NCBI GenBank assembly: GCA_963711465.1
Contig: CAVQEG010000001.1
Location: 2,014,332-2,078,331, forward strand
Reading direction: 5' to 3'
Origin: Chlorobiota bacterium
GTDB lineage: Bacteria; Bacteroidota; Ignavibacteria; OLB7
Length of the DNA stretch: 64,000 nt
The position numbers and the translations under genes were made by a program. How positions within the stretch are numbered: the first letter of the stretch is position 1; each line of letters starts with the position of its first letter. The notes under the pieces were generated by a model. The model saw only the letters and a list, made by a program, of their open reading frames with translations, ran no database searches and had not been told where the DNA came from. Of this stretch, positions 59,650 to 63,439 are shown in pieces.

Positions 59650-61701
59650 ATGCACGTCCAGAGAATCACAGTCAGAAACTTCCGCCTTCTAGCAGACGTG
59701 GAATTGGTGCTGGAAGACGAAACCACTCTTGTGGTCGGCCGCAACAACAGTGGCAAGACATCGCTTTCCGAGGCCATTCGGCGGTTTCTCGTAGACCAGA
59801 ACCCTAAATTCCAGATCGAGGACTTTTCGAACGCCTCATATGACGGCTTCTGCGAAGCGCTCAGGGTCAAGAATGCGGGTGGGCAAGACGAAGAGGTTCG
59901 CGCTCTGATTCCGAGCATCGAACTGCGACTCCTGTTCCGATACGATCCCGATCAACCCGAGCTTGGCCCACTCAGCGACTTCGTCATCGACCTCGATCCC
60001 AATTGCAACGAAGCGCTCGTGGTGGCCTGCTACGAGTTGCGCGACGGCGCCATCGAGTCGCTGTTCGCCGACCAGCCAACCGGTGAGTTGACCGACGAGG
60101 ACAGGCTCGCCTTCTTCCAACTGCTCCGCGGGCGCGTGCCCGCTCTCTTCGTCGCCAGTATATGGGCCGAAGACCCCAATGACGCTGCCAACCGCAAGCA
60201 GATGACCGTGAGTGCGCTCCGCTCGCTCCTGAAGACGGGCTTCGTGAACGCCCAACGCGGGCTCGACGACGACATGTCGAGAGAGACCGACGTTTTGGCA
60301 AAAATTCTTGAGGGTCTCTTCACCGCTGCGAAATCGCCGACCGCCGATAAGGCCGACAAGGACGTCGCTGACGCTTTGCAAGAAGCCGTGCATGACATTC
60401 AGGAGACGATCGACGGTGGTTTCAAGAAAGAACTGCGGAAGCTGATGCCAACCTTGCACACGTTCGGCTATCCCGGCCTTGACGGTTCCGAGTTGGAAAC
60501 GGAGACGATTCTCGACGTGGAACGCCTCCTTTCACGTCATACGAAGGTTAGGTACGCGGGCCATCACGGTATCCTGTTACCTGAATCCTATACCGGCCTC
60601 GGGATACGCAACCTTATCTTCATCCTGCTCCGGATCGTCAGCTTCTATCGCACCTTCCGCGCCGAACCGAATGCTCCCGGCGTCCATCTCGTGTTCATCG
60701 AGGAGCCAGAGGCTCACCTGCATCCCCAAATGCAGGAAGTGTTCATCCGTCAGGTGTCGAAGATCGCTCAACAGCTCAGCGCCCAGGAGGGCGCTCCCTT
60801 GCCCTGGCCGGTCCAGTTCATAGTGTCGACGCATTCCTCCCATGTCGCCAACGCGGCCGGCTTCGAAGCGATCCGGTATTTCCTCTCGAAGGCGACCGGA
60901 GGCGTTCGCCAAACTGAGATCAAGGATCTACGGAACGGGCTACGTAGGACGCCGGAATACCACAGAAGGTTTCTCCACCAGTATCTTACGCTGACCCGCT
61001 GCGACCTATTTTTCGCTGACAAGGCCATATTGATTGAAGGCACCAGTGAGCGCTTGCTGTTGCCGGTCATCATCGAAAGGCTGGAGAAGGCTGAGCCCGA
61101 CGCGCCCAAGCTGTCCAGACAGTACGTGACGACCATGGAAGTCGGCGGCGCCTACGCGCACATCTTCTTCGACCTTCTAGACTTTCTGGAGCTGCGGACA
61201 CTCATCATCACGGACCTCGACTCCGTCTCTGCCCCCGGCGGGCCCGCCTGCCCGGTACATGAAGGAACGGCCACGAGCAACCCCTGTCTCAACAGTTGGT
61301 TCGGAGATGGCGACTGCTCGGCCCAAGCGCTTCTAGCGAAAGATGACGCGGCCAAGGTCAAAGAGCTCCGCCGTATCGCCTATCAGCGGCCCGAGGCCGA
61401 AGGGGACCCGTGCGGCCGCACTTTCGAGGCCGCGTTCATGCTGGCGAATCCGGCGATGTTTGGTATCGAAGGCGCCACGCCCGAACAGCAGGCCCAGTGC
61501 GCATGGGACAAGCTCGGCAAGATCAAGAAGTCCCAATTCGCCCTCAAATACGCAATCGAGGAGAAGGATTGGACCGCGCCCGGCTACATCCTTGAGGGAT
61601 TGAGATGGCTGGCGACTGGCGGCATTTTTGACGCGGACGCGGCGATAGACCAAGTGGCCGACGACGACGTCCCCGAAGCTGCGGCGGCTCAAGATGAGTG
61701 A
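59650..61701 (+). CDS. OLD-family (GajA-like) ABC-ATPase plus TOPRIM nuclease
   Basis: Walker A is VVGRNNSGKTSLSEAI. A Walker B/D-loop-like VHLVFIEEPEAHLHPQMQ is present. The C-terminal TOPRIM motifs are AILIEGTSERLLLP and LIITDLDSV. Length 683 aa. Confidence 0.7.
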   Translation: MHVQRITVRNFRLLADVELVLEDETTLVVGRNNSGKTSLSEAIRRFLVDQNPKFQIEDFSNASYDGFCEALRVKNAGGQDEEVRALIPSIELRLLFRYDPDQPELGPLSDFVIDLDPNCNEALVVACYELRDGAIESLFADQPTGELTDEDRLAFFQLLRGRVPALFVASIWAEDPNDAANRKQMTVSALRSLLKTGFVNAQRGLDDDMSRETDVLAKILEGLFTAAKSPTADKADKDVADALQEAVHDIQETIDGGFKKELRKLMPTLHTFGYPGLDGSELETETILDVERLLSRHTKVRYAGHHGILLPESYTGLGIRNLIFILLRIVSFYRTFRAEPNAPGVHLVFIEEPEAHLHPQMQEVFIRQVSKIAQQLSAQEGAPLPWPVQFIVSTHSSHVANAAGFEAIRYFLSKATGGVRQTEIKDLRNGLRRTPEYHRRFLHQYLTLTRCDLFFADKAILIEGTSERLLLPVIIERLEKAEPDAPKLSRQYVTTMEVGGAYAHIFFDLLDFLELRTLIITDLDSVSAPGGPACPVHEGTATSNPCLNSWFGDGDCSAQALLAKDDAAKVKELRRIAYQRPEAEGDPCGRTFEAAFMLANPAMFGIEGATPEQQAQCAWDKLGKIKKSQFALKYAIEEKDWTAPGYILEGLRWLATGGIFDADAAIDQVADDDVPEAAAAQDE

Positions 61702-63439
61702 AGTCGTGGATCAATTAAACCCGGCCGAAGAGGCCAGCCGTAGAGCCCTCGCCGAGGTGTATGGCTGCTTGGAGCGCAGGGAGAGCTTCCTAGTCGAGGC
61801 CGGCGCGGGCGCCGGAAAGACGTACACGCTCGTCAAGGCGCTCCGATTCCTCATGGACCGCTACCAGCACATTCTGCCGCAGCGGCATCAGAAGATCGCG
61901 TGCATCACCTTCACCAACGTGGCGAAGGACCAGATTGACGCCCGGACCGACCGAAGTCCGCTCATTTATTGCAGCACAATCCACGCATTCTGCTGGTCGC
62001 TCATCAGCGGCTTTCAACGACAGCTTCGGGATCGGCTATCACAGCTCCAGCATTGGCCGGAGAAAATCGCCGAAGTCGGCGACCTCGGCGAGCGCACCGT
62101 CGCGTACGAGCTTGGGCACAGGAGCATTAACGACCGTCGTGTCTCCATCCATCATGACGATGTCCTTATCCTGACCATTGCTCTCATGGATAACGCCAAG
62201 TTCAGGCGCATCCTAGCAGACAAGTACCCTGTCATTCTGATCGACGAGTACCAAGACACCAACGCCGGCTGGATCGATTCGATAAAGTCCCGTTTCCTCG
62301 GACAGGAGGGGTCGCCGCAGTTCGGGTTCTTCGGCGACCACTGGCAGAAAATCTACGGCGACGGGTGCGGAAAGATCGAGCATCCAAGTCTGACGGTCGT
62401 ACGCAAGCACGCGAACTTCCGGTCGGTATCGACGGTCGTCGAATGCTTGAACCGCATGAGGCCGGAACTGACCCAGTTCGTCGTCGATCCAAACGAGCGG
62501 AGCAGCATCCGCATCTTTCATACGAACACTTGGGCAGGTGCCCGTCAGACCGGGGGCCACTGGGGCGGGGACCTTCCTGCCGAAACCGCAGATCTGGCGC
62601 TTCAGACTGTCCTCGATCGTCTTGGTGAAGACGGCTGGGACCTGTCTCGCGAAACTACCAAGATTTTGATGCTGACCCATCGCGTGCTTGCCGGCAAGCA
62701 GGGATATCCCAGCATTCCCGCGGTTTTCGCGTTCAACGAGTCCTTCACGAACAAGGAGCATCAGCATATCGCCTATTTCGCCGACGCTCTGGAGCCGGCC
62801 TGTGAAGCTTACCTTTCGAAAAAATACGGGGAGATGTTCGGTGCACTCGGTTCGAACGTGCCGGCGATCCGCGCTCAGACCGACAAGAAGAAATGGACAG
62901 AGGCCATGGACAAGCTCATCGAGCTAAGAGCCAGTGGGACGGTCGGCGACGTGGTGGACCATTTGCTTGCGGTACGCCGGCCGCGGGTCCCTGACGCCGT
63001 GGAGCGGCGCGAACGTGAATTGCGGGAGTTCGACCCGGAAGCCGGTGAGGATATGCCGCGCGCGCTGAAGGAGCTCGGCGACCTCCGGGCCGTTCCGTAT
63101 CAGGAAATCGTCGCCCTGTGCCGGTACCTGTCGGGCCATTCCCCGTTCGAGACGAAGCACGGCGTCAAGGGTGCCGAGTTCGAGAACGTGCTCGTGGTCG
63201 TCGGTAGAGGCTGGAACAAGTATAACTTCAACGAGATGCTCGAATTGGCTAGCGACGCCGAGCACGTTCCGGAAAACAAACAAGCCGCCTTCGAGCGCAA
63301 TCGGAATCTCTTTTACGTCACCTGTTCGAGGCCGAGGCAGCGACTCGCCGTGCTTTTCACACAACAATTGTCCCCGTCAGCCATGCAGACGGTTGACGCA
63401 TGGTTTGGTGGCGCAAACGTTGAGCCTCTGAATCTGTAG
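61694..63439 (+). CDS. UvrD/PcrA/Rep-like SF1 helicase (GajB-like)
   Basis: Walker A is VEAGAGAGKTYTLV. Motif II is VILIDEYQDTN. Overlaps the OLD gene by 8 nt (ATGAGTGA). Length 581 aa. Confidence 0.7.
   Translation: MSEVVDQLNPAEEASRRALAEVYGCLERRESFLVEAGAGAGKTYTLVKALRFLMDRYQHILPQRHQKIACITFTNVAKDQIDARTDRSPLIYCSTIHAFCWSLISGFQRQLRDRLSQLQHWPEKIAEVGDLGERTVAYELGHRSINDRRVSIHHDDVLILTIALMDNAKFRRILADKYPVILIDEYQDTNAGWIDSIKSRFLGQEGSPQFGFFGDHWQKIYGDGCGKIEHPSLTVVRKHANFRSVSTVVECLNRMRPELTQFVVDPNERSSIRIFHTNTWAGARQTGGHWGGDLPAETADLALQTVLDRLGEDGWDLSRETTKILMLTHRVLAGKQGYPSIPAVFAFNESFTNKEHQHIAYFADALEPACEAYLSKKYGEMFGALGSNVPAIRAQTDKKKWTEAMDKLIELRASGTVGDVVDHLLAVRRPRVPDAVERRERELREFDPEAGEDMPRALKELGDLRAVPYQEIVALCRYLSGHSPFETKHGVKGAEFENVLVVVGRGWNKYNFNEMLELASDAEHVPENKQAAFERNRNLFYVTCSRPRQRLAVLFTQQLSPSAMQTVDAWFGGANVEPLNL

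Follow-up and report, generated by a model that had tools for sequence, protein, structure and literature searches.

A probable Gabija-type anti-phage cassette of an already catalogued long-form subfamily in a Chlorobiota genome

Two overlapping genes near the end of a 64,000-nucleotide (nt) stretch of the Chlorobiota bacterium contig CAVQEG010000001.1, hereafter referred to as the window, very probably constitute a Gabija-type anti-phage cassette, in which a class 2 OLD nuclease (GajA) is paired with a UvrD-like helicase (GajB) and which belongs to the long-form subfamily described by the PADLOC models PDLC00063 and PDLC00113. An original prediction made from the sequence alone had proposed this arrangement, together with an 8-nt overlap between the two genes. 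Both open reading frames (ORFs) and their overlap were confirmed.

59650..61701, + strand: gajA-like gene, a 683-amino-acid (aa) ORF for a predicted class 2 OLD-family protein
61694..63439, + strand: gajB-like gene, a 581-aa ORF for a predicted superfamily 1A (SF1A) UvrD/PcrA/Rep-like helicase
61694..61701, + strand: 8-nt gene overlap, ATGAGTGA, with the gajB start codon within the gajA stop region

The overlap sits within CAAGATGAGTGAAGTC, the junction reading CAAG-ATGAGTGA-AGTC, and is a predicted signature of translational coupling. The assignment to Gabija was examined through matches to individual profile models of PADLOC-DB v2.0.0 (2023), which provided at the profile level the PADLOC check that had been suggested. 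The best match of the first protein was the GajA model PDLC00063 (6.9e-283, 938 bits; residues 1-659, model of 679 positions) and that of the second protein was the GajB model PDLC00113 (1.8e-259, 860 bits; residues 7-579, model of 579 positions), the second-best PADLOC GajA model reaching 459 bits. Matches to PADLOC models of other systems were partial, namely AriA (168 bits, 9.9e-50, ATPase part) and Old (92 bits, 7e-27), and NCBIfam contained no specific model for the pair, with PtuA, Eco8 effector, RecF and Rad50 models all far below their cut-offs. These full-length matches, the conserved A-then-B adjacency and the OLD and UvrD folds of the two products uphold the GajA/GajB (class 2 OLD) arrangement originally put forward. 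The two proteins had also been described as longer than typical, which is true with respect to the solved Bacillus cereus proteins but not with respect to their own subfamily, in which they are modal: the model lengths of 679 and 579 positions match the pair, and the apparently unusual size is thus normal for an already catalogued subfamily. Such an end-to-end fit removes the main reason for suspecting something unusual. In these terms, the pair is an intact and ordinary Gabija whose subfamily is already listed in defence-system databases; standard defence-system annotation would already label the locus as Gabija, and its discovery value is small.

The gajA-like gene encodes a predicted ABC-type ATPase fused to a TOPRIM nuclease, with a predicted two-metal active-site set. 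Pfam assigned its product to AAA_15 (8.8e-51, 174 bits for a cut-off of 32), with an additional match to AAA_21, and to OLD-like_TOPRIM (1.1e-15, 58.3 bits for a cut-off of 23.2), and its architecture consists of an N-terminal ABC-type ATPase with a helical insert followed by a C-terminal TOPRIM nuclease with a helical subdomain. The Walker A and TOPRIM motifs named by the original prediction were found by translation, and a score of 58.3 bits against OLD-like_TOPRIM, together with one of 938 bits against the GajA model, identifies the protein as something other than a non-OLD ABC ATPase lacking TOPRIM. We compared the protein with GajA of B. cereus VD045 (BcGajA), with the class 2 OLD of Burkholderia pseudomallei (BpOLD) and with relatives collected by scanning one genome per species, which yielded at least 383 genomes with a match, from which 80 loci were taken for comparison. 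Residue conservation was counted among 63 GajA relatives and 64 GajB relatives, and lengths and junctions among 64 complete pairs. The elements located in GajA are the following.

59737..59763, + strand: Walker A/P-loop GRNNSGKTS, residues 30-38, found by translation; K36 corresponds to BcGajA K35 by alignment
60688..60837, + strand: Walker B/D-loop LVFIEEPEAH (residues 347-356) to H-loop STHS (residues 393-396), found by translation and alignment
61009..61221, + strand: TOPRIM core, Pfam residues 454-524, supported by Pfam and by hidden Markov model (HMM) alignment to BcGajA
61036-61050, + strand: TOPRIM motif EGTSE, residues 463-467, found by translation
61213-61221, + strand: TOPRIM motif DLD, residues 522-524, found by translation
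61417..61431, + strand: RTFEA motif with putative metal-B ligands T591-x-E593, a pattern like BpOLD T506-x-E508 and BcGajA D511-x-D513
61525..61530, + strand: K626-K627, in which the helical subdomain would have its catalytic lysine (K562 in BpOLD, K541 in BcGajA)

All elements of an ABC ATPase were found in GajA, that is the P-loop, Q-loop, signature, Walker B, D-loop and H-loop. G30, G35, K36 and T37 of the P-loop, as well as E351, E352, H356 and H395, are invariant (63/63 relatives), and so are the Q-loop residue Q202 and the signature YTGLGIR, both found by translation. The BcGajA residues known to be essential or defined by structure (K35, H320, E379, E383, G409, D432/D434) have counterparts in the window protein: besides K36, H395 aligns in a profile alignment with H320, the nucleotide-sensing histidine, E463/E467 with E379/E383, G499 with G409, and D522/D524 with D432/D434. 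The acidic residues E463/E467 and D522/D524 also match E400/E404 and D455/D457 of BpOLD; all four are invariant in the 63 relatives, and G499 is conserved in 61 of them. Further downstream, R590 and E593 are invariant, residue 591 is a threonine in 53 relatives and a serine in 10, K627 is invariant and K626 is found in 61/63. The T591-x-E593/K627 set would correspond to the D511-x-D513/K541 pattern of BcGajA, with 34 residues separating E593 from K627 versus 28 between D513 and K541. This part of the assignment was drawn from motif pattern and spacing as no solved OLD protein could be aligned with the C-terminal sub-profile: searching the PDB with residues 535-660 at E <= 10 returned chance matches (DnaB, Mdm35) and no OLD structure. 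The alignment to known structures proposed in the original prediction succeeded for the catalytic residues that map to BcGajA and failed for the C-terminal sub-profile. An AlphaFold2 model built from a 48-sequence alignment had a mean predicted local distance difference test (pLDDT) of 64.5, the TOPRIM/C-terminal region being confident. Its best matches in a fold search were the class 1 OLD of Thermus scotoductus (TsOLD, 4.2e-12), BcGajA and the Retron-Eco8 OLD, which confirms the OLD family, but the template modeling (TM) scores of 0.2-0.3 are too low to separate OLD classes.

The gajB-like gene encodes a predicted helicase with the full set of SF1 motifs. Its product matched UvrD-helicase (1.3e-19, 71.4 bits for a cut-off of 23) and AAA_19 (1.1e-11) in Pfam, and the UvrD motifs that had been read from the sequence, GAGKT (within GAGAGKT) and DEYQD, were both present. 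All six of the following motifs were found by translation.

61802..61822, + strand: motif I (Walker A) GAGAGKT, residues 37-43, invariant in 64/64 relatives
62243..62257, + strand: motif II DEYQD, residues 184-188, invariant in 64/64 relatives, counterpart of D162/E163 of B. cereus GajB (BcGajB)
62330-62359, + strand: motif III FGDHWQKIYG, key residues invariant in 64/64 relatives
62411-62425, + strand: motif IV ANFRS, key residues invariant in 64/64 relatives
63152-63172, + strand: motif V TKHGVKG, key residues invariant in 64/64 relatives
63308-63334, + strand: motif VI LFYVTCSRP, key residues invariant in 64/64 relatives

In motif Ia, T74 and N75 show one substitution each (63/64 relatives). 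The site of the UvrD Q motif reads L-N-P-A-E, and the invariance of P10 and A11 and the near-invariance of E12 indicate that the glutamine of this motif is replaced, BcGajB having likewise been reported to be devoid of a Q motif (PMC10822852). The AlphaFold2 model of GajB had a mean pLDDT of 81, and its best fold matches were UvrD, PcrA and Rep (E ~1e-18, query-normalised TM score (TMq) of 0.46-0.49).

Relative to the Gabija systems that have been tested, the long-form pair belongs to a distinct and remote subfamily. Gabija of B. cereus VD045 (GajA of 578 aa, GajB of 494 aa; PDB 8SM3, 8U7I, 8J4T, 8TJY) is similarly organized as a two-gene operon in which the OLD gene precedes the UvrD-like gene. 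Foldseek identity to BcGajA and BcGajB is about 14%, and the window proteins are ~105 aa (GajA) and ~87 aa (GajB) longer, the solved B. cereus chains measuring 575-598 aa and 493-499 aa, respectively. Most of the extra length of GajA lies between the P-loop region and Walker B (residues 65-339 versus 64-276 in BcGajA, ~+62 aa), and most of that of GajB in the C-terminal half corresponding to domains 2A/2B (271-581 versus 258-494 in BcGajB, ~+74 aa). In single-sequence searches, GajA matched BcGajA at E ~2e-6 and the Thermus class 1 OLD at 3.3e-13, and GajB had no match to BcGajB. The suggestion that the pair is a divergent subtype is borne out by this distance from the B. cereus Gabija but not as a claim of novelty, since the subfamily is already included in PADLOC-DB v2.0.0 and occurs in at least 383 genomes. 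When family profiles were searched against the PDB, BcGajB came first for GajB (3.5e-13), just ahead of UvrD1 and Rep, and GajA retrieved TsOLD (3e-18), BcGajA (4.6e-12), the Retron-Eco8 OLD (8.5e-12) and the C-terminal region of BpOLD (3.8e-8). Members of the PADLOC sub-models themselves (from Escherichia coli LF82, E. albertii, Salmonella, Yersinia, Burkholderia and Cupriavidus) are 60-63% identical to the window proteins and share their gene order and 8-nt overlap; we observed no substantial difference between them and the window pair.

The class 2 OLD proteins of B. pseudomallei and Xanthomonas campestris (PDB 6NK8, 6NJV) occur in the same tandem with a UvrD-like helicase and belong to a different subfamily from the window pair. 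Of the two-metal set of BpOLD, the window motifs match E400/E404 and D455/D457 and, putatively, T506-x-E508 and K562. BpOLD does not respond to ATP and acts as a non-specific exo/endonuclease, and its defence phenotype is listed as unknown (PMC10568477). Class 1 OLD proteins, such as TsOLD (PDB 6P74) and Old of phage P2, share the ATPase and TOPRIM architecture, and TsOLD is the best PDB match to the window GajA both by sequence (3e-18) and by fold (4.2e-12); however, class 1 genes stand alone without a helicase partner and their products are on average ~50 aa shorter than class 2 proteins, unlike the window gene with its conserved partner. Class 2 OLD has been equated with GajA (PMC10568477), and the conserved helicase partner, read with the definition given by Schiltz and Chappie (PMC10568477), places the protein in class 2 rather than in class 1. 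Class 2 membership is accordingly predicted from gene neighbourhood (PMC10568477, PMC6755086) and from the PADLOC models, not from closeness to solved class 2 proteins. In Pseudomonas aeruginosa PA14, the GajA-GajB operon is likewise carried by a mobile element, PAPI-1, and both genes as well as the ATPase, TOPRIM and helicase active sites are needed for broad defence (PMC12407980).

We next considered how the long-form subfamily is distributed and maintained. Among its relatives, found in at least 383 species-representative genomes, a GajB homologue lies directly downstream of the GajA homologue at every locus with contig room (60+ genomes), and the identities of the two homologues rise and fall together across loci. 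The lengths of the complete pairs cluster at 683-690 aa and 577-583 aa, which makes the window pair modal, and the -8 junction is present in 45 of the 64, down to ~50% identity, the remainder having mostly -4 or other short overlaps. The ratio of non-synonymous to synonymous divergence (dN/dS) against relatives is 0.11-0.15 for gajA and 0.10-0.15 for gajB, with near-identical dN and dS between the two genes. Both genes are under purifying selection and are co-inherited, and motif conservation together with dN/dS puts the pair far beyond chance. Within E. coli, members are found in LF82 and in 23 further complete genomes; others come from Salmonella, E. albertii, Yersinia, Burkholderia and Cupriavidus. 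In RefSeq, the genes carry only the labels ‘ATP-dependent nuclease’ and ‘UvrD-helicase domain-containing protein’. Proteins that are 78-89% identical form a tighter clade with the window pair and come mostly from environmental metagenome-assembled genomes (MAGs) of Desulfobacterota, Gemmatimonadota, Acidobacteriota, Planctomycetota, Chloroflexota, Spirochaetota and Alpha- and Gammaproteobacteria (assigned to Deferrisomatales, Longimicrobiales, Bryobacterales, Planctomycetaceae, Caldilineales, Spirochaetaceae, Krumholzibacteria and Alpha-/Gammaproteobacteria). Synonymous divergence between the window and these relatives amounts to just 0.5-1.0 across phyla, from which horizontal spread is evident. 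Three MAG loci (L020, L023 and L064) carry a partial GajA (residues 83-682, 1-561 and 1-425, respectively) and no GajB match despite ample flanks, a sign that the cassette may have been disrupted or have decayed in some genomes.

Comparison of the DNA with the 80 related loci using blastn delineated the unit that is shared. Homology starts at 59594-59650 and ends at 63391-63578, that is at most ~55 nt upstream and ~140 nt downstream of the two genes, the left limit being set by the following segment.

59594..59649, + strand: conserved upstream leader, left limit of the mobile unit; blastn, DNA-level conservation in some related cassettes

Since DNA homology ends at the gene edges, the pair moves as a self-contained cassette. 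Neither a conserved third gene nor mobile-element ends were detected among the 80 loci, and no meaningful direct or inverted repeats bracket the cassette in the window. The GC content of the cassettes partially tracks that of their hosts (r = 0.72) and is often lower than that of their flanks. The settings of individual copies vary: one relative (L082) lies inside the tra (transfer-gene) region of an integrative and conjugative element (ICE), another (L084) adjoins a 1265-aa protein with a reverse transcriptase (RT) domain and an HNH_2 protein, and the E. coli LF82 copy adjoins two large hypothetical genes and an ISEc1-family transposase. Among the 398 plasmid records with a match (identity up to 56%), 214 are conjugative. 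A phage origin was rejected, as no close relative was present in 50,697 phage records, in which the best full-length match was 27% identical.

By analogy with characterised systems, the long-form cassette could act as follows. The OLD protein would oligomerise through the helical insert of its ATPase domain and dock the helicase into a GajA-GajB supercomplex, as in B. cereus and P. aeruginosa; BcGajA forms a tetramer through this insert and assembles with GajB into a 4:4 complex needed for defence (PMC10781630). The TOPRIM site would then nick or cleave invading DNA by two-metal catalysis, in agreement with the residue roles described for class 2 OLD and GajA proteins (PMC10781630, PMC6755086, PMC10822852), and the ATPase domain would serve as a nucleotide-dependent switch on the nuclease. 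BcGajA is known to nick DNA and to be inhibited by physiological nucleoside triphosphate (NTP) levels via its ATPase domain, with involvement of H320 (PMC8136825). The helicase ATPase may couple the sensing of DNA ends or nicks to activation; mutation of BcGajA H320, or the D162A/E163A mutation of BcGajB, abolishes defence (PMC10822852). Two models of activation can be envisaged. Nucleotide depletion might unleash the nuclease and abort the infection, or the complex might directly attack linear phage DNA ends that are free of RecBCD, with no abortion, as reported for PA14 Gabija, which acts non-abortively on the ends of injected linear DNA where RecBCD is kept off by phage end-binding proteins (PMC12407980). 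For the long-form subfamily, these two models are not separable from sequence. The 78-89% identity of a bare two-gene cassette across at least 8 phyla could reflect a host-independent mode of action, working in almost any bacterium.

Several observations weigh against this reading of the pair, and we consider them together. By profile, BcGajA is a weak match (4.6e-12), surpassed by the Thermus class 1 OLD (3e-18), and BcGajB ranks only 26th among the structural matches of the GajB model (E 1.8e-12, TMq 0.35). The GajA model is poor at residues 195-422, mostly with pLDDT <50, a region that spans the putative oligomerisation insert, and no counterparts could be assigned to the B. cereus oligomer interface residues (GajA K94/R97, I199 and I212; GajB V147/Q150). 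Motif II of PA14 GajB reads DESQ, in contrast to the invariant DEYQD of the window family, which makes PA14 Gabija a different subfamily, and the K35/H317 numbering of an E. coli plasmid Gabija identifies that system as the short type. A limited literature search found no experimental test of the long-form subfamily, the tested systems being from other subfamilies. In addition, residue 594 of GajA (61429-61431), which directly follows the invariant putative metal ligand E593, is an alanine in the window versus an aspartate in 59/63 relatives (TFEDAF to TFEAAF), and no sigma-70-like promoter was found in a scan of 59000-64000 that was confined to the sigma-70 consensus, the host phylum possibly using other promoter types.

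The weak sequence links could first of all mean that the pair is another ABC-ATPase defence system, such as class 1 OLD, PARIS (AriA/AriB), Septu (PtuA/PtuB) or a retron-type class 3 OLD, given that weaker matches to AriA, Old, PtuA and the Eco8 effector exist and that the class 1 OLD of Thermus is the top PDB sequence match. We regard this as extremely unlikely. The GajA model scores 938 bits against 168 bits for AriA, and the PtuA match (55.6 bits for a cut-off of 500) involves the ATPase part alone, the Eco8 effector model reaching 48 bits for a cut-off of 250. PARIS and Septu were ruled out by the fusion of TOPRIM to the ATPase, which distinguishes the protein from AriA and PtuA, and by the SF1 helicase partner, the ATPase being paired with the separate TOPRIM/DUF4435 protein AriB in PARIS and with the HNH protein PtuB in Septu. 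Class 1 OLD as a stand-alone gene was likewise ruled out, the helicase gene being conserved directly downstream across the family, and so was an Eco8-like retron: the flanks consist of an IS30 remnant, a HicA-like ORF and a small ORF with a Clp-fold protease, the scanned flanking ORFs contain no reverse-transcriptase domain, and a single tRNA exceeds the Rfam threshold in the whole window, which leaves no retron non-coding RNA family. The distance from B. cereus Gabija could also reflect a materially different mechanism or architecture (stoichiometry, trigger or substrate) conferred by the extra ~105 and ~87 residues, in which case long-form Gabija would be more than a size variant and might assemble differently or answer a different trigger. 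This possibility, which we find unlikely on balance, is suggested by the remote relationship to both BcGajA and BcGajB, by the concentration of the extra residues in the GajA ATPase (~62 aa) and in the C-terminal half of GajB (~74 aa), and by a GajB model closer to full UvrD/PcrA/Rep (TMq 0.46-0.49) than to BcGajB (0.35). It is also in line with the divergence already seen among class 2 OLD proteins, BcGajA being a sequence-specific nickase inhibited by ATP and BpOLD non-specific and ATP-insensitive (PMC10568477), and with the fact that abortive and non-abortive outcomes of Gabija are both on record (PMC12407980). On the contrary, the catalytic and nucleotide-binding motifs of both partners are canonical, gene order, coupling and two-gene composition are the same as in Gabija, and the Pfam scan gave no hint of an added enzymatic domain.

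Two further explanations concern the role and the state of the cassette. It could serve mainly in mobile-element conflict or maintenance (plasmid exclusion, stabilisation of an ICE or island) rather than in phage defence, as the relative located within the ICE transfer-gene region (L082), the many plasmid-borne relatives (214/398 matching plasmid records being conjugative) and the position of the window copy beside IS30 and HicA-like remnants might suggest; PA14 Gabija resides on conjugative PAPI-1, and plasmids have been reported to be Gabija-sensitive as well (PMC12407980). Carriage by mobile elements is, however, typical of phage-defence systems and does not separate the two roles, and each tested Gabija protects against phages, so we deem this explanation improbable. 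Slightly less probable still is a degraded island in which the window copy of the cassette is decaying or inactive. Truncated neighbours (the IS30 remnant, a 64-aa truncated ORF and the orphan HicA-like ORF), the alanine at position 594 found only in the window where 59/63 relatives carry an aspartate, and the lack of a promoter-like site in the sigma-70 scan speak for decay, but both ORFs are full length with the modal lengths of the family, no catalytic residue has been lost, dN/dS compared with relatives stays at 0.10-0.15, and the scan covered sigma-70 sites, whereas the type IX secretion system (T9SS) sorting domains of the host indicate a phylum in which promoters may be of other types.

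An intact Gabija cassette of the long-form subfamily therefore remains our preferred interpretation. Its value is in documenting a highly conserved long-form clade whose minimal unit, two genes with a conserved and coupled 8-nt junction, passes from phylum to phylum. The residue map obtained here (GajA K36, H395, E463/E467, D522/D524, T591/E593 and K627; GajB K42 and D184/E185) makes the pair a well-defined candidate, which could be used to compare the nucleotide-depletion and RecBCD-free DNA-end models of activation in a second lineage.

The surroundings of the cassette in the window comprise the following features.

57133-57327: 64-aa ORF, MNLYIGVTDNDWF...DEVNFWQP, which looks like a truncated N-terminus
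57267-57920: 217-aa ORF with a third-position GC content (GC3) of 0.53 and no Pfam, NCBIfam or PADLOC match
58558..59217, - strand: truncated IS30-family transposase (NF033563, 135.8 bits for a cut-off of 80, model positions 2-181 of 267)
59255..59515, + strand: HicA-like ORF of 86 aa (PADLOC PDLC02910, E 1.8e-4, residues 32-83, a weak match)
59540-59597, + strand: inverted-repeat hairpin with 27-nt arms, 85% complementary, and a 4-nt loop
63589-63762, + strand: 57-aa ORF downstream of gajB, with a strong AGGAGG ribosome-binding site
from 63746, + strand: Clp-fold protease-like ORF running off the window and overlapping the 57-aa ORF by 17 nt

The original prediction placed the pair in a lower-GC island next to an IS30 remnant. 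The remnant is indeed there, with partial coverage of the NF033563 model. The low GC content is a property of the flanks (0.543 for 57000-58557, the lowest-GC stretch of the region, and 0.542 for 59218-59649) and not of the pair, for which an island was ruled out: its GC content of 0.592 is within one standard deviation of that of equal-sized windows of the remaining sequence (0.611 +/- 0.032), and it does not differ in GC3 (0.735-0.74) from neighbouring host genes. An independent Logan contig (L086) has the genes of 57000-58557 in the same place, after the BNR/T9SS gene. The 135 nt that separate the HicA-like ORF from gajA contain no visible HicB-like partner, and this ORF is probably an orphan toxin-antitoxin remnant beside the IS30 remnant. 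The hairpin, 53 nt upstream of gajA, coincides with the start of the homology to other Gabija cassettes, and the 134-nt intergenic region preceding gajA folds at -59.8 kcal/mol (z = -4.2). We rejected the hairpin as a part of the Gabija system because it is single-copy and absent from all 85 related loci compared; it may serve the upstream ORF as a terminator or insulator, or be an insertion scar.

Downstream of the cassette, the additional module anticipated by the original prediction is plausible, consisting of the 57-aa ORF and the Clp-fold protease-like ORF, but the blastn boundaries at the 80 loci leave 63589-64000 outside of the conserved Gabija cassette. The 84-aa fragment of the ORF starting at 63746 had no Pfam, NCBIfam or PADLOC match; in a tblastn search against plasmids, it was ~36% identical to genes annotated ‘periplasmic serine protease’ or ClpP. 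On a Klebsiella plasmid (L085), a homologue is likewise preceded by a small ORF, in a lambdoid prophage-like region. This separate module could be an uncharacterised accessory or defence pair.

Elsewhere in the window, three consecutive long ORFs (2519, 1002 and 1636 aa) occupy 25469-41813 on the - strand with a coding-type GC pattern (GC3 0.72-0.86), the first of them having a signal-peptide-like N-terminus. They had no Pfam match at E <= 1e-3, nor any PADLOC match for the two that were scanned, and are giant secreted or surface proteins of unknown family; an FG-GAP/ASPIC-UnbV protein (43057-45336) comes after them. Por_Secre_tail domains (type IX secretion sorting) are present in the proteins encoded at 45578-46492 (- strand) and 54864-56996 (+ strand), which suggests that the host phylum possesses T9SS. 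The sole tRNA of the window, tRNA-Arg(CCT) at 51305-51381 on the - strand, is located about 8 kb upstream of the cassette and is a possible island integration site, and the genes between it and the low-GC segment (a radical SAM gene and one for a BNR/T9SS-tail protein) have a host-like GC3.

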